Source: an uncultured Nitrososphaerota archaeon
GTDB lineage: Archaea; Thermoproteota; Nitrososphaeria; Nitrososphaerales; Gagatemarchaeaceae
Assembly: GCA_963718895.1 (NCBI GenBank)
Contig: CAVRAG010000007.1
Coordinates: 608,001 to 672,000 of the forward strand
Length of the DNA stretch: 64,000 bases
Direction of reading: 5' to 3'
Positions 15,154-43,263 of the stretch are shown here, one piece after another. Numbering within the stretch: the first letter of the stretch is position 1; the number at the start of each line of letters is the position of its first letter. Under the pieces are notes generated by a model. The model did not search any database, had not been told where the DNA came from, and saw nothing but the letters and a program-made list of their open reading frames with translations. The position numbers and the translations under genes are program-made.

Positions 15154-15482
15154 AGATCCTCATCGGAGGCTGGTTCACCCTCCCCAGGCTCGGGAGGGAG
15201 GATTTCTCGCTCCTGATGAGGCAGGGTGTGAGGTACGACAAGGCGATGGGATTCAAGATGGACGCCGAGACAGACCTGGAGTCAGCGGTCAGGACCATCA
15301 GGTCTGCCGTCGGGGAGGATGTCGAGCTGACCGTGCGGTGCTTTGTGTGTGGAAGGGAATCCTGCGAGGGGTGCGCTTACGCGAAGGTCTGCGACAGGAG
15401 GAAGGTCTCCTCGATGTGCCTCTGCGCGGAGCACGGCCCGGAGACGGGGGTCTATCGATCTGTACGTGAAGGCCCTCACTGA
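15150..15482 (+). CDS. Small Cys-rich, putatively metal-binding protein
   Basis: The frame is open from CTG 15150 (LKILIGGWFTLPRLG) and contains CFVC, CEGC, C and CLCAEH. Start is uncertain. Confidence 0.65.
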   Translation: MKILIGGWFTLPRLGREDFSLLMRQGVRYDKAMGFKMDAETDLESAVRTIRSAVGEDVELTVRCFVCGRESCEGCAYAKVCDRRKVSSMCLCAEHGPETGVYRSVREGPH

Positions 15483-15490
15483 GACAACCG

Positions 15491-15790
15491 TCAGTTGAAG
15501 GTCATCTCGGCGGACTGGGCGGAGGCGAGCGACCTCCAGTCGGCCAGGAACTGCTGCAGCAGGGACGCCTGAGGGCTCGAGTGGTTGACCCTGAATATCC
15601 GTATCCTGTTGAACCTCTTCTCAGTGACGAGCCCCGCCTTGACCAGGAACGCCAGGTGGAGCTCGACCGACGAATGGGATATCCCCGACCTCCGGGTTAT
15701 CTCGGAGATGTTCAGTTCGTTGCTCGCCATCATGACAGACATCACCTTCACGCGTCCGTAGGAGGAGAAGACGTCTTCAACCTCTAACAT
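15491..15790 (-). CDS. ArsR-like winged-helix DNA-binding protein
   Basis: VFSSYGRVKVM..ELNISEITRRSGISHSSVELHLAFLVKAGLV; overlaps the cdc6 stop. Confidence 0.85.
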   Translation of the reverse strand: MLEVEDVFSSYGRVKVMSVMMASNELNISEITRRSGISHSSVELHLAFLVKAGLVTEKRFNRIRIFRVNHSSPQASLLQQFLADWRSLASAQSAEMTFN

Positions 15791-16949
15791 CGGCGACCAT
15801 GCCTCTCAGTTCGTCTATGAGCTGCTCTGCCGAGACGAGCGAGAGTCCAATCATGGTGGTCCTTCCCCGCACGCCCTTTCCGGATATCTGGGTCTCTATA
15901 ATCCCCTTGCGTGACAGCTCGTTGATGTCGCTCCAGACCTGCGTGTGGTGGTTCGCGGCTACGCCCATGCTCTCGCAGAGCGCGTCGTAGCTCTTCTCCG
16001 CCTCGCCTATCGTGATGTAGGCCGAGTCGCTCTTCTTGAGGAGGTTGGAGATGGAAATCAGGATCAGTCTCTGGTGTCTGCCGAGGTAGGCCAGCTCCTC
16101 CTTCTTGAACTGCGGAGGCAGCGAGGCCTTTGCGCGTCGCACGTGCTCGGGCGTGATCCTTGGAGAGCCGGCGAGGTCGGCCATCCTCCCGGCCCTGTAA
16201 ATCAGGTCGAGTGCGTACCGCGCGTCCCCGTAGGTGCTGGCTATCTCTGCGGCCAGCTCGAGCGAGTCATCCTCAACGCAGCCGTCGTTGAACGCATCCT
16301 GGCTCCTGGAGGCCAGGATGTCATAGAGCTGCTGCGACGAGTAGGGGTCGAGCGATATCGAGTTCCACTGGAGGGAACTGAGGGTGCTGAGGTCCGCAGC
16401 CTTCAGGTAGTCCAGCGTCTTCGATATCAGGAGCGATGAGAAGACCTGCGCGCCCTGCGAAATCTCGCGGAGCCTGGTTATGGTGTAGAGCGAAGAAGAG
16501 TCGGAGGTGACGAGCGAGTCGACCTCGTCGAAGGCCACGATAAGGTGTATCTTGTCGCCGGCCAGCGCCTCAAAGAACGATTGGAGCAGCTCTTCGAACC
16601 CGAACCCCCTTGACGGGTAGCCGTGCCCGAGGAAGTGCATGCACTTTGTCAGGACGGCCTGCAACGACCGATCAATCCTGCAGTTTACGTGAAAGAACTT
16701 CACGCGGTTGCCGTAGAGCAGGGCGTTCTTCTCGAGCGTTGCGCCCACCTTCTTGGCGAGCATGGTCTTGCCCGATCCGACGGGGCCGGAGAGCATGACG
16801 TTCTGGCTCATCTGCCCGGAGCGCTCGACGACGCCCTGAAAGTACATCTCCAGGGCCTTCATCTGGTCGTCCCTGTGCGGCGTGGACAGCGGGACGAACT
16901 CTGGAACGAGCACACTCTCATTCCGGAGGACGGACTGATGTTGGCTCAT
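15777..16949 (-). CDS. cdc6: Orc1/Cdc6 replication initiator
   Basis: PHRDDQM, GPVGSGKT, HVNCR, DEVD, PYSSQQLYDILASR, GDARYALD, C-terminal wHTH ending GRTT. Confidence 0.93.
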   Translation of the reverse strand: MSQHQSVLRNESVLVPEFVPLSTPHRDDQMKALEMYFQGVVERSGQMSQNVMLSGPVGSGKTMLAKKVGATLEKNALLYGNRVKFFHVNCRIDRSLQAVLTKCMHFLGHGYPSRGFGFEELLQSFFEALAGDKIHLIVAFDEVDSLVTSDSSSLYTITRLREISQGAQVFSSLLISKTLDYLKAADLSTLSSLQWNSISLDPYSSQQLYDILASRSQDAFNDGCVEDDSLELAAEIASTYGDARYALDLIYRAGRMADLAGSPRITPEHVRRAKASLPPQFKKEELAYLGRHQRLILISISNLLKKSDSAYITIGEAEKSYDALCESMGVAANHHTQVWSDINELSRKGIIETQISGKGVRGRTTMIGLSLVSAEQLIDELRGMVADVRG

Positions 16950-17079
16950 TCCAAATGAGAATTAGGTCGATTTTCCATATATAACCATGATACTCCTGCA
17001 GGATCGGAGCGTCATGGGTGGGTAGACTGAAACTGTTCCAACGCTCTCTTAAATAATCAAGGGGCGGCGAAGCCGAAAG

Positions 17080-17670
17080 ATGGGCTACTTTCCGAGGGGG
17101 CAGAACCTGTCCTCGTCCATCACCTTTATCCTGCTCATCACGAATGTCGCCGTCTTCATCGTCACGCTCGCAGGGGGCGAGGAGGTCGTTCTCCTGCTGG
17201 CGCAGACCGGCGAGCTGTTCTACGCAGGGTTCTACTGGCAGCCCTTTACGGCGATGTTCGTCCACTTCGACATCCTCCACATCCTCTTCAACATGTTCGC
17301 GCTCGTCTACTTCGGGACGGTGGTCGAAGGCAGCTATTCGAGATCCCAGTACCTCGCGGTGTACTTCGGTGCCGGGCTCCTCGGTAACGCGGCGTCTCTC
17401 TTCCTCATCCCTTCGAATGACCCGACTGGCGGCGCGTCAGGGGCGATATTCGGGCTCGTGGGGGCGTACGTGGCCATGGAGAGGAAGGGGCCGGGGTTGG
17501 TGATTGCCGTCCTCTATGCGACGCTGATCTTCGTAGACAGCTCGGGACCCGGGGTGAACATCTTCGCGCACCTATTCGGGGTCCTGACCGGTTTCGGGCT
17601 CGGGCTAATCTTCGTCGCTCAGGAACCGAGGGCACGAGCTCTAGGGCCTTCCTCCCTCTACAGTCTATAA
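17080..17670 (+). CDS. Rhomboid-family intramembrane serine protease
   Basis: WQPFTAMFVH, HILFNM, GASG, AHLFG. Confidence 0.93.
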   Translation: MGYFPRGQNLSSSITFILLITNVAVFIVTLAGGEEVVLLLAQTGELFYAGFYWQPFTAMFVHFDILHILFNMFALVYFGTVVEGSYSRSQYLAVYFGAGLLGNAASLFLIPSNDPTGGASGAIFGLVGAYVAMERKGPGLVIAVLYATLIFVDSSGPGVNIFAHLFGVLTGFGLGLIFVAQEPRARALGPSSLYSL

Positions 17671-33652: not shown

Positions 33653-34688
33653 AGGTGTGTCGAATAACTAACTCCTCTGTCAACCTTCTTTCATTCGTTC
33701 CCTGATGGGATTGAGAAGATCTCGCTCTCTCGTGCCCGAGAAGAAGAAGCGGAACTGGAAGGAGTACAACGAGTCGCTGGTGAGGAGGGGAGAACTCCTC
33801 TTCGATACCGATTTTTTATCTGGTTGGAGCAGAGAACTAGAGAGTCTCAACGAGGAGAAGGAAGGAGCGAGGTATCGCTATCCAGACTCGTTAATGAGTA
33901 TGCTCGCAGCCATCCACGTGTACCTGCTCCCGTACAGGGAGCTGGAAGGGTTCCTCAGGATGTTCTCGGGGCACGTAGAAGGGTTGAGAGTCCCAGACTA
34001 CACCACGATGTGGTGGAGGATATCAAGGGTGAAGGTGGAGCTCGACCCAAGTGTGGATCCAAAGGAAGACGTGACCATAGCGGTTGACTCGACTGGCATC
34101 AAGGTCTCCAACCACGGGGACTGGATGAGGCACGTCTGGAAGGTGAAGCGGCCCTTCATCAAGGTACATCTCGCAGTGGACGTCAGGACCGGGAAGATAC
34201 TGTCGATGGAGGTGACGAAGGAAGAGGTAAGAGACGCAGAGATGCTCGTCCCGCTGGTCGAGCGAGCGTCCTCGAGCGCGAAGGTGGCGAGGCTGATGGG
34301 CGACGGGGGATACGATTCGAGAGCCAACTTCAGGTACCTCCACGATAACGGGATTGAGCCCGTCATCAAGGTAAGGAAAAATGCCTCGTCGCACGCACAC
34401 GGGTGCATGCCGAGGAAGCTCGTCGCGATGGAGCAGCTGAGAGACTACGAGAGATGGAAGACGAGGCACGGGTACGGCCAGAGAGCGAGGGTCGAGTCGG
34501 CGATATCGTCGTTCAAGAGGACGTTCGGGGAGCACGTAACCTCGGTGAGGTGGAGGAGCGTGGTCAACGAGCTGCTCGTCAAGGCGTCGGTCTACAACCT
34601 GTTCGTCGGGAAGAACCTGTAGCAATGGCTAGGAGTCGGCGAAACCACGAGCAAGAAGTGACGCACCGTCAAGTTATTCGACACACCT
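33653..34688 (+). mobile_element. IS5-family insertion sequence (IS903-like), 1036 bp
   Basis: Perfect 17-bp TIRs AGGTGTGTCGAATAACT (33653-69) and AGTTATTCGACACACCT (34672-88). 9-bp TSD GGCGCTGCG at 33644-52 and 34689-97. Confidence 0.95.
33705..34622 (+). CDS. IS5-family DDE transposase
   Basis: RNWKEYNESLVRRG, PDYTT, VDSTG, KVHLAVD, GDGGYDS, YGQRARVESAISSFKRTFG. Confidence 0.95.
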   Translation: MGLRRSRSLVPEKKKRNWKEYNESLVRRGELLFDTDFLSGWSRELESLNEEKEGARYRYPDSLMSMLAAIHVYLLPYRELEGFLRMFSGHVEGLRVPDYTTMWWRISRVKVELDPSVDPKEDVTIAVDSTGIKVSNHGDWMRHVWKVKRPFIKVHLAVDVRTGKILSMEVTKEEVRDAEMLVPLVERASSSAKVARLMGDGGYDSRANFRYLHDNGIEPVIKVRKNASSHAHGCMPRKLVAMEQLRDYERWKTRHGYGQRARVESAISSFKRTFGEHVTSVRWRSVVNELLVKASVYNLFVGKNL

Positions 34689-38383: not shown

Positions 38384-38655
38384 GGCGAGGCTAAAGAAGC
38401 CTTCTGGCTGGATCGGAGGAGGCGGAGGGCCAAGAAAGCCGTCTCCAGGGCAGTCGACCGCCCTCGGGCACTTTCGCGATAGGTCGTTATCCGCCTGCGA
38501 ACATAACCCGCCATGCGCACGAGGCCGTAGAGTTCTAGGATTGACCCTAGGTAGAGAATTGTGAGGACGAGCAGCGGGACGTGGACGAAGGGGTACGCGG
38601 AGACGTCGAAGACATAGACTGCGGAAATCACGCCCTGGGCAAGCAGCAGTTTCAT
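38365..38655 (-). CDS. Small hydrophobic hypothetical protein
   Basis: Two hydrophobic stretches; the 3' end is uncertain. Confidence 0.35.
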   Translation of the reverse strand: MKLLLAQGVISAVYVFDVSAYPFVHVPLLVLTILYLGSILELYGLVRMAGYVRRRITTYRESARGRSTALETAFLALRLLRSSQKASLASPWQLKR

Positions 38656-38703
38656 CGGTCAGTGAGATTCGATGGGCAGCTATACCCCTAGCGGAGGAAT
38701 CCT

Positions 38704-39180
38704 CTATCTTCGCTCCTTCAGTCTAGAGTCCACCGTGAGATTGACGTAGCTCCTCTCGAGGTTCTTCTGCGGGAAGACCTCCTTGACCTCCCTGGGTCTG
38801 CGGTCAGCGAAGACGCTGTCCGCGTGCCACTTCGACCCGAAGGCGAAGAAGCTCATAAGAATCGGAAGCGCATCCCACCCCTTCTCGGTGAGGCTCCATC
38901 TGACGACGTTGGCGAGATCAGTATCCACCGTCTTCTGGATGATGCCTTCCCTCTCGAGCTCCTTCAGGCGGGCCGAGAGCATCCGTGGCGTCAGACCGGG
39001 TATGCCTCTGAGAAAGTCCGAGAAGCGCTGGGCGTTCTGCATCGACATCTCCCTCAGCATCAGCAGAGTCCACTTCCTCCCGAACACCCCTAGGCTGGCA
39101 GCGATGGGGCACCCCACGATCGGGGCTTCTGTGGCTATTGGTGTCCCTTTGGTCCAGTATTCGAACGGCGAGCTTGCCAA
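38704..39180 (-). CDS. HxlR-family transcriptional regulator
   Basis: CPIAASLGVFGRKWTLLML, RFSDF, LSARLKELEREG, LTEKG. Confidence 0.93.
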   Translation of the reverse strand: MASSPFEYWTKGTPIATEAPIVGCPIAASLGVFGRKWTLLMLREMSMQNAQRFSDFLRGIPGLTPRMLSARLKELEREGIIQKTVDTDLANVVRWSLTEKGWDALPILMSFFAFGSKWHADSVFADRRPREVKEVFPQKNLERSYVNLTVDSRLKERR

Positions 39181-39222
39181 ATGCGGTCTCCCAAATCACA
39201 GGGCGCGCCGCTATTTATCTTG

Positions 39223-39235
39223 TATACTTTGTATA
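39223..39235. promoter_or_regulatory. Inverted repeat TATAC-N3-GTATA beside the TATA-like box of the HxlR-family gene; possible operator
   Basis: TATACTTTGTATA next to TATTTAT (39212-18). Confidence 0.35.
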
Positions 39236-39335
39236 GCGTGCCCGTCTCAGAGGATTGTGGTCCCATCTGGCCGAAACAATCACGAAGGAGACGCGATTGA
39301 CAATCCTGCGCCTCGGCGGAGTGCAACTCTTCGAT

Positions 39336-39923
39336 CTACTTGTGGAATCTTCCGAATATCCTCTTGAGGAAGCCGCCTTCCTGAGGCGAGGACTCAGCGA
39401 CCGGGACCTCCACAGTGAAGGTCTGCCGACTCGTCGACGCCTCCATAGCTGGAGCGGAAGACTGAACCTTGTCTGCGGCCTCCTGAGGAAAAGGTTGATC
39501 CTGAACTGGAGTGGCGACGAACCCTTCAGGCTCTGCGAGGGCCGGAACTTCCAGGGCGGGGGTCACTTCCACGGGTTCAGGCAGAACCGGGTCGGCCACG
39601 ACGGGCTGGGCTACAATTGTCTCGGCGAGGACTGGCGGGCTGGCGGCGTATGCCGATTCGACCTGCTCCACAGGCTCGACACTTGAGATAGCGTACCCCG
39701 GGCTTGCGGCGGTCTCTGACCTCTTTCGGAAGAAGACGTCGTTGTGAGAGTCCCGCCCCGATGTCGATACCTCGACCGATGCCCCTGTCTCGGCGATGGA
39801 GGACGAAGGAGACGCGAACCCAGAGGACTCCGGCACGGGTCCACCGGTGGTGAACGACGATGCTGCTAGCCTGCTAGACTTCCTCCGGCGCGTGAGGGGG
39901 TCGTCGCCTAAGCCTCGAGGCAA
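39336..39923 (-). CDS. ParA partner protein (195 aa): RGLG N-terminal peptide, low-complexity linker, amphipathic C-terminus
   Basis: TTG at 39923, preceded by GAGGAG at 8-nt spacing, overlapping the parA 3' end. MPRGLGDDPLTRRRK...SHNDVFFRKR...GGFLKRIFGRFHK. Confidence 0.8.
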   Translation of the reverse strand: MPRGLGDDPLTRRRKSSRLAASSFTTGGPVPESSGFASPSSSIAETGASVEVSTSGRDSHNDVFFRKRSETAASPGYAISSVEPVEQVESAYAASPPVLAETIVAQPVVADPVLPEPVEVTPALEVPALAEPEGFVATPVQDQPFPQEAADKVQSSAPAMEASTSRQTFTVEVPVAESSPQEGGFLKRIFGRFHK

Positions 39924-40753
39924 CCCAGAATCTCCTCGGTGAGCTTCCCGTAGGCCTTCGCTCCGTTGCAATCGGAATCGTACTCGAAGATAGACTTGTG
40001 ATAGCTCGGCGCCTCGGCAAGCCTGATGTTGACAGGGATGACCGTGGTGAAGACAGGTCCGTCCGTGAAGCCCTTCCTCACCTTTGCCTCGACCTCTCTC
40101 GCCAGGAGCGTCCGTCGGTCGTACAGCGTGAGGACGGCGCCGAGTATCTCCAGGCTGGGGTTTATGTCCTCCTTCACCTTGTGGACGGTGTCCAGGAGCT
40201 GGACCACCCCCTCCATCGCGAAGTACTGCGTCTGGACCGGAATCAAGACCTGATTCGCGGCTGTGAGGGTGTTGACCGTGAGAATGCCGAGAGAAGGGGG
40301 TGTGTCGATCACGACGTAGTCGTACTCGTCTTCCTTGAGCTCCTTCAGCTTCTTCTTCAGCTTGAACTGCATGTTGATGTCGTTCGCCAGGCGAATCTGG
40401 CACGCGCTGAGGTCGCCGCTCGCAGGAGCGACGTCGAGGTTCTCCCTACAGTTCCGGATCAGCACGTCCGAGAGCGAGACCTCCTCGTCGAGGAGCAAAT
40501 CGGCTGTGGTCTTCACGATCGGGGTGTCGGGGCCGACGAGATAGTTCGTGGCATTGGCCTGCGGGTCCATGTCGATGAGCAGGACCCTCTTGCCCGCCGC
40601 GGCAAGCTGGCATGAGAAGTTTACCGTTAGGTCGGTTTTTCCGACACCGCCCTTCTGGTTGGCAACCGCGATTATCCTCGTGAACGCTCCCGTCGTGGCC
40701 GCGCCCGATGGTCCCCTACCGTGGGGCACCTTCTCCAGGGTGGTCATTGTCAA
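39908..40753 (-). CDS. parA: ParA/Soj-family ATPase
   Basis: ANQKGGVGKT, IDMDPQANAT, IDTPPSLG, LIPVQTQYFAMEG, TLYDRRT, NIRLAEAPS. Confidence 0.95.
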   Translation of the reverse strand: MTMTTLEKVPHGRGPSGAATTGAFTRIIAVANQKGGVGKTDLTVNFSCQLAAAGKRVLLIDMDPQANATNYLVGPDTPIVKTTADLLLDEEVSLSDVLIRNCRENLDVAPASGDLSACQIRLANDINMQFKLKKKLKELKEDEYDYVVIDTPPSLGILTVNTLTAANQVLIPVQTQYFAMEGVVQLLDTVHKVKEDINPSLEILGAVLTLYDRRTLLAREVEAKVRKGFTDGPVFTTVIPVNIRLAEAPSYHKSIFEYDSDCNGAKAYGKLTEEILGCLEA

Positions 40754-40994
40754 CGATTATCACGCGTATCGCGAGGTGTCCTTCATATTAGGAGAGGGGT
40801 AATTTCCTTTTCTAGCAAGAAGCCAATTCCTTTCCACCACTGACCGAGGCGCGGTCGAGTGGGCACCTGGCACTCCGCCCACCCAGGTGGCGTCATCGTG
40901 GGCCGACCGCTTCGCACGCGGGCGGGATGCGACCGAAGCTGCACGACCCTGCATCGGTCCGGGGGGCGGTCCGAATTCGCCGGAGAGGCTGGCG

Positions 40995-42485
40995 CTATCC
41001 CTTGAGCCAGCCCAGCTTCACGAAGACGTACGTCACGAAGGACATGCTGATCACGAGCACAAGGACGACCTCCCACAGGTAACCCGAGTACGGCACGTCG
41101 AGCAGGTTCATCCCGAGCAGTCCCCCCACTGCCGAAGGGATGACCGACATGCTCGTAATTACCGCTAGGATCTTGAGTATCTTGTTGGTCTCGAAGGAGG
41201 TCTGGTTGATGTAGAGGTCGATCGTGGAGTGGATGTTGTTGACCAGGTCTTCCGCTATCTCGTTCAGGTAGGAGACCCCGTCCTGGAGCACGTGGAAGTC
41301 CTCCTCGGCCTCGCTGTCGAACCCTTCGAGGGGGACCTTCTGAGACTCTATGATGCTGAGGAGCTCCTTGAAGTGAACCAGGTTCGATACCAGCCTGGAG
41401 ACCTCCTTGTTGAGGCCGTAGACTCGCTCAAGGAAGTCTCGGGGGAGCTTGGACCGGGGGGTCCCCCCGATCCTGATCACCTCAATCTCGATGTCGGACA
41501 GCACCGACCTGTACTCCCCGAGGGTCTGATCGAGCAGCGCGTAGAGGACAGATACAACGAAGCTTGTCTCTTCCCGGCGACGCACCGACTCCATGACTCC
41601 GGAGAAGACGTCGAGCCCGTGACGGGAGACGGAGATTATCTTCCGTCCCGTGCAGATTATGATCATGCCCGAGCGAGAGATCGTCAGGAAAGCCTCGGGC
41701 CTGTCGGGGTACCTTACCTTGCCTGACTGCAAGAAGATCAGGGACACCTGCTGGACGTAGTCGACGTGCGGGAAAATCTCGTCGACCAAGTCGATTTTGA
41801 AGTGCGGCTCGGGGACCTGGACGAGCGCGCTCAGCCTCCTGACCCCCTCTTGCGTGAGGTTGCGGACGTCGAGCCACTCCTGGCTTTCGTCGACCAGATG
41901 CGACTTCAGGTCGTCCCAGGTCAGGTGGTCCGTCGCCGTGAGCGTCTGTGAATCCACGACTCGTATGACGGTCTCCACTTCCTGCCTCGATTCCAGCGCG
42001 ACGCCCTGGCTCGTCTGCATCCTGCTCCCTAGGGCCCTCCCACCCACTGCCAGCGCCCTTGGGAGCCTGAGCAACCTAAGCAACAACGAGGGTGAGCCGC
42101 GGGTACTGAGACCGAGGGCTGGAAGGTACTGAATGAACGGCAGGACGACGATCACAAGGTCGACGAGGTGCCAAGGCTCCTTGAAGTGGGCCAACCTGTC
42201 CTTTGCGAGATACAACTTCGAGGTGTACTCGGCTACGAAGAGCACAATTATCGCCCAGTCGCAGATGTCGAGGAACTCGATGGCTGACGAGGAAAGATCG
42301 ACCGCGAACGGGATGAGGATGATGGGGAGGATTGCGAAGGAGAGAAAGACCATGAACCTGTCCGAGAGGATCGAGTTGACGGTGTCCCTCAGGTTCTTCC
42401 GGGGGTCGCCTTCTGCGACGAAGAGCGACCGAGCAAGGAGACCGTTGTCCTTTGGACCACCGTCGACGTTTCCCGCATTGGACAT
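40995..42485 (-). CDS. CorA-family divalent cation channel with an N-terminal S1-S4 voltage-sensor-like domain
   Basis: LFVAEY, WHLVD and LLRLLRLPR in four TM helices; then EWLDVRN, TNKILKILAVIT, GLLGMN and a final TM. Confidence 0.9.
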   Translation of the reverse strand: MSNAGNVDGGPKDNGLLARSLFVAEGDPRKNLRDTVNSILSDRFMVFLSFAILPIILIPFAVDLSSSAIEFLDICDWAIIVLFVAEYTSKLYLAKDRLAHFKEPWHLVDLVIVVLPFIQYLPALGLSTRGSPSLLLRLLRLPRALAVGGRALGSRMQTSQGVALESRQEVETVIRVVDSQTLTATDHLTWDDLKSHLVDESQEWLDVRNLTQEGVRRLSALVQVPEPHFKIDLVDEIFPHVDYVQQVSLIFLQSGKVRYPDRPEAFLTISRSGMIIICTGRKIISVSRHGLDVFSGVMESVRRREETSFVVSVLYALLDQTLGEYRSVLSDIEIEVIRIGGTPRSKLPRDFLERVYGLNKEVSRLVSNLVHFKELLSIIESQKVPLEGFDSEAEEDFHVLQDGVSYLNEIAEDLVNNIHSTIDLYINQTSFETNKILKILAVITSMSVIPSAVGGLLGMNLLDVPYSGYLWEVVLVLVISMSFVTYVFVKLGWLKG

Positions 42486-42636
42486 TATCTTGGCTGACGA
42501 CCGGTGTCTAGATTGCGCTGGATAAAAACAGAGACCGTCCGATCCGCGGTCCACGGCCGGGGCGTCGGAATCCTGACCGCAGCCGACTTTCAACACCATT
42601 AATAGACCTCCGCCAAGGGGGCGCTCCCGACCCGAG

Positions 42637-43263
42637 ATGGGGCTGAGGAGCTGGCTAGTTCCGGAGGACAAGGTGTTCTTCGACCTGCTCGAGCAGGAGT
42701 CGAACAACGTCGCGAACGGGGCGAAGGTGCTCGAGGAGATGATAACTCAGTTCGACAGGCTGGAGCAGAGAAGAGCCGAGCTGAAGGAGATTGAACACAG
42801 GGGAGACGAGATAGTCCACGAGATCTACGAGAAGGTCAACTCGTCATTCGTGACGCCAATCGACCAGGACGACATAACGAAGCTCGCATCGCTCTACGAC
42901 GACGTCCTAGACTTCATGGATGCGGCCGCAAACCGCATCGTGCTCTACGAGGTGAAAGAATCGACCGAGGCCATGAAGCAGTTCGCAAGGATAGTGGCAC
43001 GCTCGGTGGCGGAGATCCACACCGCGTTCGTCGCCATGAGGCACCGTGGGGGGGACGAAATCGACCAGAAGTGCATCGAGGTTGACACCCTGGAGAACGA
43101 GGCAGATGTCATTCTGAACGACAGTGTCGCGAAACTGTTCAAGGGCAGCGACGTGATACAGATCATGAAGCTGAAGGAGATCTACGAAGAGCTGGAGATC
43201 GTGACGGACAAGTGCGAGGACGTCAGCCAGGAACTCCGGGACATCGTAAGGCGCTACACCTAG
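42637..43263 (+). CDS. DUF47 PiT accessory protein (PhoU-like)
   Basis: FFDLLE, EHRGDEI, FVTPIDQDDI, LENEAD, DKCED. Confidence 0.93.
   Translation: MGLRSWLVPEDKVFFDLLEQESNNVANGAKVLEEMITQFDRLEQRRAELKEIEHRGDEIVHEIYEKVNSSFVTPIDQDDITKLASLYDDVLDFMDAAANRIVLYEVKESTEAMKQFARIVARSVAEIHTAFVAMRHRGGDEIDQKCIEVDTLENEADVILNDSVAKLFKGSDVIQIMKLKEIYEELEIVTDKCEDVSQELRDIVRRYT

Follow-up and report, generated by a model that had tools for sequence, protein, structure and literature searches.

The findings presented here concern parA and an unannotated gene overlapping its end in a stretch of 64,000 nucleotides (the window) from an uncultured Nitrososphaerota archaeon of the family Gagatemarchaeaceae (assembly GCA_963718895.1, contig CAVRAG010000007.1, positions 608,001 to 672,000 of the forward strand). 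Our results lean towards a two-gene ParA-adaptor module, in which the product of the second gene, hereafter the partner, would be a disordered protein that engages ParA through its N-terminal head and the membrane through a MinD-type helix at its C-terminus. This reading is carried by the placement of the partner gene behind parA, by the confinement of its conservation to three short motifs, by the amphipathic character of the last of these, and by the recurrence of the first two in front of other C-termini in sister lineages. The components lie in the window as follows:

39908..40753, minus strand: parA, 281 aa, TTG start at 40753; Soj-type deviant Walker A ATPase (Pfam AAA_31, 2.3e-57)
39336..39923, minus strand: partner gene, 195 aa, TTG start at 39923; predicted disordered protein with three conserved motifs
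39932..39937, minus strand: GAGGAG, a Shine-Dalgarno-like hexamer 8 nt 5' of the TTG, inside the parA coding sequence
39879..39923, minus strand: motif 1, residues 1-15, MPRGLGDDPLTRRRK; proposed ParA-binding and ParA-activating N-terminal peptide
39714..39749, minus strand: motif 2, residues 59-70, SHNDVFFRKRSE; proposed second half of the ParA-interaction module
39378..39713, minus strand: linker 2, residues 71-182; Ala/Pro/Glu/Val-rich, acidic, of variable length, pLDDT mostly <60
39339..39377, minus strand: motif 3, residues 183-195, GGFLKRIFGRFHK; C-terminal basic amphipathic helix, proposed membrane-targeting sequence

Partner gene and its conservation

The original prediction placed a 195-aa open reading frame (ORF), opening at TTG 39923 with GAGGAG 8 nt upstream, across the end of parA, and the DNA agrees with it in coordinates and sequence; the overlap with parA amounts to 16 nt, and the three motifs are all present as quoted there. 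The longer 355-aa ORF said to enclose it was likewise found, in the same frame from a GTG at 40403. It exists in a mechanical sense, its additional N-terminal part lying inside parA in another frame and showing no conservation. Among relatives, the open frame 5' of the conserved partner start ranges from 0 to 187 codons, and at one locus (L004) a stop codon stands directly before the start. The start codon itself keeps its position; L002 and L003 have ATG there and L009 has GTG, and TTG stands at most loci. The sequence GGAGAT is kept in all 14 relatives with upstream sequence; since it also encodes the conserved C-terminus of ParA, its conservation is assignable to neither role.

A single-sequence search of 41 related genomes found relatives of the partner in 18 of the 22 other genomes of the source genus and in none of 18 outside it. 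An index of 5.8 billion proteins gave 22 relatives at E<=0.01, all of them unnamed or "hypothetical" and none with a Pfam domain, and the profile of these 22 matched 152 of 1.84 billion representatives at E<=0.001. A collection of 15 billion proteins contains neither the 195-aa nor the 355-aa sequence, and a search of the ESM Atlas gave no usable match. When index and profile searches were pooled, regular expressions recovered all three motifs in 107 of 154 short relatives (<=400 aa), the remainder being mostly N-terminally truncated calls or contig-end fragments; about nine long matches (>400 aa) were excluded from this count, most of them repeat proteins aligned on the low-complexity linker and one of them P0166. 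This protein (450 aa) and P0148 were considered as natural fusions of ParA and partner and rejected, their repeated frame switches marking frameshifted assemblies.

Identity between relatives is 66-91% for ParA and 27-46% for the partner. The ratio of nonsynonymous to synonymous substitution (dN/dS; Nei-Gojobori, five pairs) falls between 0.03 and 0.14 in the motifs, between 0.32 and 0.55 in the linkers taken together and between 0 and 0.09 in ParA; it stays below 1 along the entire partner ORF, and both genes are under purifying selection. As far as comparison among relatives can tell, the partner is confirmed as a real gene. The opposite view, that the 195-aa frame is no gene but a chance opening in GC-rich DNA, or that the 355-aa ORF is the true product, can draw on the TTG start and on a tRNA call on the opposite strand inside the ORF. 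It has to contend with 152 representatives of the same architecture, with dN/dS values from 0.03 to 0.55, with the ATG or GTG found at the same codon, with an upstream extension that is not conserved and is cut off by the stop in L004, and with an Rfam scan lacking a tRNA. We regard its probability as practically nil, and as far as sequence comparison reaches it is refuted.

The tRNA call in question is an 82-nt tRNA-Arg(GCG) reported by ARAGORN at 39501..39582 on the plus strand, antisense within the partner ORF. No tRNA appeared in an Rfam scan of 39000-41200 at E<=1, and the call, being without Rfam support, is treated as a false positive that probably arose from GC-rich coding DNA.

In four genomes of the source genus the partner ORF is disrupted beyond motif 2, either by stops or by being divided between two frames, which could reflect assembly errors or real decay. 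The interrupted copies are:

G012:C5:439320-439874
G022:C16:60246-60813
G017:C1:694891-695395
G009:C3:740430-740910

Linkage to parA and distribution

parA lies directly upstream of the partner and overlaps it in 14 of 15 loci, the exception (L010) beginning at a contig end; all 15 loci of a second set, drawn largely from the same genomes, have it upstream, and contig ends cut into two of these. The expectation that homologs would always stand behind parA and conserve only the motifs was thus borne out: parA is upstream wherever the DNA is present, and alignments of 22 and of 108 partner sequences contain three conserved islands only. Clustering of all flanking ORFs revealed no other gene shared beyond close relatives, so that the module comprises two genes. 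These comparisons support a strict parA-partner module and agree with the two-gene system originally proposed.

Gagatemarchaeaceae, the lineage of Group I.1c that does not oxidise ammonia, live in acidic soils and peat (PMC10640624). The main text of that description makes no mention of segregation, cell division, Cdv or MinD, and the passages covered deal neither with ParA nor with chromosome partition. In 301 genomes of the class Nitrososphaeria the partner profile matched only 2, both of the source family. Among 97 family genomes it matched 29, with 20 of 22 in the source genus, 1 of 1, 1 of 3 and 6 of 55 in other genera, and 0 of 15 in six further ones. An orthologue of ParA (E<=1e-40) is found in 27 of the 97, every one of which also has the partner; both genes are hence present in 27 genomes, the partner alone in 2, ParA alone in 0 and neither in 68. 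One of the two partner-only genomes (G005) has the partner at a contig start, and the other (G012) has a partner with stop codons and no ParA found at E<=1e-40. Since these genomes are kin and many of them are incomplete metagenome-assembled genomes, the counts describe co-occurrence and do not amount to a statistical test.

A Soj-type ATPase without a helix of its own

The parA product has been called publicly as P0167, a 279-aa protein starting at an ATG two codons downstream of the TTG. Many ParA/MinD-type models match it in the Pfam and NCBIfam scan with scores below their cut-offs. Its closest solved relatives are the ParA of 8RAY (2.5e-57), Soj of Thermus thermophilus (1WCV/2BEK; 3.3e-54) and Soj of Helicobacter pylori (6IUB; 7.3e-45), whereas a MinD structure is a far weaker match (1.6e-15 versus 2.5e-57 for 8RAY). 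The deviant Walker A motif reads NQKGGVGKT, and K34, K39 and D63 are invariant in 42 ParA orthologues.

The alignment to the Soj structures runs from end to end and leaves the last 4-5 residues of the C-terminus (...EEILGCLEA) beyond it, so that ParA has no helix extension of its own. In line with this, the NCBIfam MinD models score far under their cut-offs, and ParA lacks the C-terminal amphipathic helix that belongs to members of the MinD subfamily. The earlier claim that this ATPase has no MinD-like terminal helix is therefore sustained.

In regard to DNA binding, the four DNA-contacting lysines of H. pylori ParA (K199, K227, K230 and K247; PMC11229316) were mapped onto ParA through the Soj structure alignment. 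K199 corresponds to R219, which is R or K in 42 of 42 orthologues, and K230 to R244, with 41 R and 1 K; R214 is invariant. Across the six thaumarchaeal ParAs compared, R213/R214, R219 and R244 are basic in all, and position 241, the equivalent of K227, is V or L in all. The idea that the loss of this lysine is coupled to the membrane-type partner was rejected on the latter ground. Of the earlier statement that ParA keeps the DNA-binding arginine motifs of Soj, the part concerning R214, R219 and R244 stands, and the part that would extend to the positions of Lys227 and Lys247 does not; DNA binding by this ParA is thus putative. Y71 and L72, which belong to the loop by which H. pylori ParA holds the ParB peptide (PMC11229316), are invariant as well.

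Motifs and linkers of the partner

Partners are typically about 150-250 aa long. The islands have the consensus MPRGLGDDPLxR at residue 1 (MPRGLGDDPLxRxRK in its longer form), SYNDVFFxRR, and a C-terminal GGF[FL]KR[IL]FG[RK]F helix. In motif 1, L5, G6, P9 and L10 are invariant among 108 sequences and R3 and R12 are conserved in at least 90%, the first 20 residues of the partner holding 6 basic and 2 acidic ones. Motif 2 contains the invariant F64 and F65, with N61, D62 and V63 conserved in at least 90%. A reading of motif 2 as a PCNA-binding or MIT-interacting motif was dropped by eye only, the spacing of key residues being unfit. Linker 1 spans 14-50 residues, is rich in Ser, Ala, Pro and Thr, and is near neutral; linker 2 spans 40-173 residues (median 100) with a net charge of -13 per 100 residues.

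The ParA-interacting peptide of H. pylori ParB reads MAKNKVLGRG, with Leu7 and an essential Arg9 (PMC11229316), and motif 1 was aligned to it by eye on the LG core. Like that peptide, motif 1 sits at the extreme N-terminus, starting at residue 1, and is flexible and basic, with R3 and R12 conserved. It departs from the conserved LG-R arrangement, the invariant L5 and G6 being followed by Asp or Glu. The proposed ParB-like N-terminal peptide accordingly holds for the LG core, the terminal site and the basic residues, and fails at the arginine.

AlphaFold2, supplied with the 108-sequence alignment, gives the partner a mean pLDDT of 57 and a pTM of 0.17, with no folded domain; only two helices are predicted, at residues 9-22 (block pLDDT 75) and 185-190. 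The partner is predicted to be mostly disordered, which, with conservation restricted to the islands, matches its first description as a flexible protein with three short motifs. The model and the lack of any Pfam or NCBIfam match at E<=1 also agree with the earlier view that the partner has no ParB/CTPase, helix-turn-helix (HTH) or ribbon-helix-helix (RHH) domain.

C-terminal amphipathic helix

The conserved positions of motif 3 are G184, R188, F190 and G191 (at least 90% in the 108 sequences). FLKRIFGRFHK is the top 11-residue window of the partner, with a hydrophobic moment of 0.76, the last 13 residues carry a net charge of +4, and the moment observed for the last 12 residues was reached by 182 of 10000 shuffles. 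These properties extend to the relatives: in 105 of 108 it is again the last 16 residues that contain the top window (median moment 0.73, median charge +4), and in the 101 of 108 matched by an anchoring expression, hydrophobic residues stand at i, i+1, i+4, i+5 and i+8, with basic residues between them. No transmembrane segment is apparent, the maximum Kyte-Doolittle 19-residue window having a median of 0.89.

The membrane-targeting tag of Escherichia coli MinD is printed as KGFLKRLFGG (PMC5471200), and GFLKRIFG of the partner is identical to it in 7 of 8 residues. The partner helix has the form of a MinD-type membrane-targeting sequence, namely a short, terminal amphipathic helix in which basic residues flank the hydrophobic face, and the MinD-like C-terminus foreseen from the first reading of the sequence finds support in this match and in the computed hydrophobic moment.

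Related partners with exchanged tails

ParA homologues with 49-55% identity occur in other Nitrososphaeria, 7 of 301 class genomes matching at E<=1e-25. In all four such loci read, parA is followed by a small ORF whose product starts with M-[PS]-x-R-L-x-[DQ]-N-P-[LF], and (L/Y)xxFFx(K/R/Q) follows about 10 residues after this equivalent of motif 1. These small partners with the N-terminal motif pair, from other Nitrososphaeria families, are located at:

L046:2244-2516, plus strand
L047:2650-2979, plus strand
L048:1283-1510, minus strand
L049:2268-2510, plus strand

Their profile retrieved 67 relatives at E<=0.01, all unannotated, which fall into four types by C-terminus. Type 1 (about 109 aa, one relative belonging to Nitrosopumilaceae) ends in a winged-helix-like domain, with a weak match to Pfam TrmB (0.019), a PDB profile match to Z-alpha domains (6e-5) and an AlphaFold2 model of pLDDT >90 for residues 58-99; among the Foldseek matches listed, almost all are winged-helix or other HTH DNA-binding domains, with weak values (E>=0.16). 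Type 2 (about 90 aa) has an acidic tail, type 3 a CxxC...CxC zinc ribbon and type 4 a helical tail.

An hhalign comparison of the partner family with the zinc-ribbon and acidic-tail set aligned residues 1-14 with residues 1-14 (E = 1.1e-4, probability 57%). In the six-frame translation of the 3.1-Mb source assembly, a regular expression written for the two variants of motif 1 has a single match. Chance is therefore an unlikely explanation for finding the motif at residue 1 of the gene behind parA in four further lineages. The same regular-expression scan showed no second adaptor with this N-terminal module in the source assembly (80.5% complete).

Since the first two motifs are shared and the C-termini differ, motifs 1 and 2 look like a ParA-binding module, and the helix occupies the position that a cargo domain has elsewhere. 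The middle motif was at first taken for a free third element, a view we abandon because it recurs together with motif 1 in partners with other C-termini. Judged by these alignments, motifs 1 and 2 may be a common ParA-binding head and the C-terminal part an exchangeable cargo module. The small ParA partners elsewhere in Nitrososphaeria, with the same motifs 1 and 2 and other C-termini, are new here, and they bear on the evolution of ParA adaptors, in which a two-part head would be kept and the tail exchanged among winged helix, zinc ribbon, acidic tail and membrane helix.

Genomic context

The contig that carries the pair measures 868 kb. Genes in the vicinity encode a CorA-like transporter, a PHO4 transporter, an HxlR regulator and a short-chain dehydrogenase. 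Further features of the surroundings are:

40995..42707, minus strand: gene upstream of parA, 570 aa; an Ion_trans segment (residues 121-220) and a CorA-like domain (277-562), an unusual pairing
33705..34622, plus strand: DDE_Tnp_1 transposase of an insertion sequence (IS) element, about 5 kb downstream of the partner gene
15777..16949, minus strand: one of two orc1/cdc6 genes, 23-24 kb from parA
G000:C7:716544-716750, beyond the window, and L041:916-1827 (minus strand for L041): ParB_N-domain protein, 303 aa, with the motif GSRRFEAAKRLG and a weak ParB HTH match

G007 and G010 have orc1/cdc6 at 18 and 19 kb from the pair, and in G018 the orc1/cdc6 genes are on other contigs. A spacing of 18-24 kb would fit a role close to a replication origin. 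No origin-recognition-type repeats were seen beside orc1/cdc6 in 15300-17400, and no centromere-like repeat array around parA in 38400-41300, where only 12-20 nt matches in two to four copies occur.

The ParB_N protein carries a GxxRxxA-like motif and lies 68 kb from parA, on the side opposite to orc1/cdc6; in G007 and G010 it keeps to this side, 47 and 73 kb away. An LG-type motif for interaction with ParA is missing from its N-terminus. The protein is present in only 13 of 23 genomes of the source genus, the source genome included, and is therefore no fixed third component. The order of ParB_N gene, parA-partner pair and orc1/cdc6 is kept in three of the four genomes checked.

Proposed model and rival explanations

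As a general rule, a partner of a ParA/MinD ATPase makes contact with it through a charged, disordered N-terminus, and the remaining part of the partner holds the cargo (PMC10241942, PMC11407121). If this rule is applied here, the head formed by motifs 1 and 2 would engage ParA, and the tail formed by motif 3 would engage the membrane. By analogy with its bacterial relatives, ParA should form dimers with ATP and associate with the nucleoid regardless of sequence, and motifs 1 and 2 would jointly bind it and probably stimulate its ATPase. The last 11-13 residues of the partner would lie on the cytoplasmic face of the membrane as a basic amphipathic helix of the MinD type, the membrane taking the place of the cargo that the C-terminal part of the adaptor holds in other ParA systems. 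On its own, a short MinD-like helix should have only a weak hold on the membrane. Avidity for the membrane would come from a pair of partners bound to the same ParA-ATP dimer, the acidic spacer would keep the head off DNA and membrane and set the reach, and the link would come apart once the head had triggered hydrolysis.

What would follow is an ATP-gated, reversible and self-releasing link from nucleoid-bound ParA to the membrane, by which nucleoids could be spread, positioned or separated with respect to the envelope. That the module serves as such a clutch, working through the avidity of two partners for chromosome positioning or segregation in Cdv-dividing Thaumarchaeota, is a tentative proposal, clearly more doubtful than the adaptor module itself. 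The clutch might have arisen when an ancestral thaumarchaeal ParA adaptor exchanged its DNA-binding domain for a membrane helix. Thaumarchaeota are not known to have the bacterial MinCDE and FtsZ-based logic. For the organisation and separation of their chromosomes the module suggests a minimal solution, in which a protein of short linear motifs only would link an ordinary DNA-binding ParA to the membrane. Its small parts might also be used as a synthetic ATP-controlled tether of DNA to membrane. Its physiological weight may be modest, the organisms being uncultured and the module dispensable in many relatives.

Several points weigh against the module as read here. Thaumarchaeal membranes consist of tetraether lipids, and binding of the helix to such lipids is predicted only. 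The C-terminal region of TubY binds both membranes and DNA (PMC7762940), and basic amphipathic helices can bind DNA or proteins. At the position of the essential Arg9 of ParB, the consensus of 22 and that of 108 partner sequences both have Asp or Glu. On the ATPase, K227 of H. pylori corresponds to V241 and K247 to D261, so that two of the four DNA-contacting positions are non-basic and DNA binding is not assured. Support from hhalign for homology of the heads is modest, at a probability of 57% with the zinc-ribbon and acidic-tail set and only 2% (E = 0.023) with the winged-helix set alone. Finally, presence in only 29 of 97 family genomes implies that many relatives dispense with the module, which would thus be an accessory system.

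The alternative that we take most seriously, while holding it to be unlikely, is an McdB-like adaptor for a cargo other than the membrane, with the N-terminal module engaging ParA and the C-terminal helix binding a protein assembly or DNA, or driving self-association into condensates, which ParA would spread over the nucleoid. Protein cargos are as a rule served by disordered adaptors whose N-terminus is charged (PMC10241942, PMC11407121, PMC10554743), sister lineages join the same N-terminal module to DNA-binding-type domains, and the dual binding of TubY (PMC7762940) speaks in the same direction. However, the helix matches a proven membrane-targeting sequence in 7 of 8 residues and keeps its i, i+1, i+4, i+5, i+8 pattern in 101 sequences, 13 residues are few for the specific recognition of a protein assembly, and no conserved neighbour gene could encode the cargo; the three motifs occur nowhere else in the source assembly. 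Quite improbable, in our judgement, is a MinD in two pieces, in which the partner would supply the membrane helix in trans and ParA-ATP would form patterns on the membrane instead of the nucleoid, DNA binding being uninvolved. Val and Asp at two of the four DNA-contact positions and the MinD-like helix would suit it, and a dimer would unite two weak helices as in MinD. Yet Val or Leu at 241 is also found in ParAs with winged-helix or zinc-ribbon partners and is not coupled to the membrane helix, R213/R214, R219 and R244 are basic in all related ParAs compared, the closest solved relatives are DNA-binding Soj/ParA proteins (2.5e-57, against 1.6e-15 for MinD), and an acidic spacer of about 100 residues would be superfluous for simple recruitment.

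We give very little credence to the pair being a remnant or passenger of a mobile element, such as a partition cassette from an integrated plasmid or virus or a defence module based on ParA, and taking no part in organising the host cell. Its patchy occurrence within the family (20 of 22 genomes of the source genus against 6 of 55 of another), its variable flanks, the IS transposase 5 kb away and the recruitment of ParA-like NTPases into immunity (preprint 10.64898/2026.10.19.760177) would be in keeping with such an origin, which is countered by the 868-kb contig with neighbours of housekeeping type, the gene order kept in three of four genomes, the absence of an integrase, toxin or nuclease partner at the locus and the purifying selection on both genes; the portions at hand of the immunity preprint (10.64898/2026.10.19.760177) describe no comparable partner. 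The adaptor module with a membrane-engaging tail remains the reading that we prefer, and it is the one compared with known systems below.

Comparison with known systems

The abstracts and text passages covered contained no description of this partner or of any ParA adaptor with a membrane helix only. The module resembles bacterial ParABS in its ATPase, close to 8RAY ParA (2.5e-57) and T. thermophilus Soj (3.3e-54), and in the partner gene following parA, and it shares with ParB a short, basic, LG-containing peptide at the extreme N-terminus of the partner (PMC11229316). Unlike ParB, Spo0J and Noc, the partner has no ParB_N/CTPase, HTH or dimerisation domain and falls outside that family; unlike in ParABS, no parS-like repeats were seen at 38400-41300, and the ParB_N protein is encoded separately, 68 kb away.

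With MinD, the partner helix has in common the 7/8 match of GFLKRIFG and the same amphipathic basic character. MinE also joins a membrane-binding helix to an ATPase-activating segment, for an ATPase that is itself membrane-bound. In contrast to MinDE, the helix is on the partner and not on the ATPase, the ATPase is of Soj type, the partner has no MinE fold, and the two functions are set apart by some 100 residues of acidic spacer.

McdB and PomX (PMC10241942, PMC11407121) likewise have a disordered, charged N-terminal region that interacts with the ATPase and a separate part that binds the cargo. The disorder and the N-terminal module of the partner fit an McdB-like adaptor, whereas no cargo gene is conserved nearby, no relation by library models or by sequence to McdB or PomX is seen, and the proposed cargo is the membrane, reached through a 13-residue helix, rather than a microcompartment or protein cluster. 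A conserved C-terminal Trp is typical of McdB, and the partner of the source genome contains no tryptophan at all.

Noc brings DNA to the membrane by means of an amphipathic helix at its N-terminus, whose membrane binding is switched by CTP (PMC8429893), and RicO anchors origins with a C-terminal amphipathic helix (preprint 10.64898/2026.03.06.710092). The partner is proposed to resemble Noc, RicO and RocS in bringing chromosomal DNA to the membrane by such a helix. Those proteins differ from it in being bacterial, in having a folded DNA-binding domain of their own and in lacking any sequence relation to the partner; since DNA binding would here be supplied in trans by ParA-ATP, the link would be ATP-gated, unlike theirs.

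Among archaeal systems, SegAB and HpaAB are also two-gene operons of a ParA and its partner. HpaA is described as a ParA that came from bacteria, and the N-terminus of HpaB is predicted to be its site of contact with HpaA (PMC13722703). SegB and HpaB bind DNA site-specifically through an RHH motif (PMC13722703, PMC8682754), whereas the partner, unlike SegB, HpaB, ParG and omega, has no folded RHH domain, no strand or helix pair in its model and no family match. Taken together, none of the known systems compared joins a Soj-type ParA to a membrane-helix adaptor built of motifs only, and we regard the parA-partner module as a variant on the ParA-adaptor theme rather than as a new kind of system.

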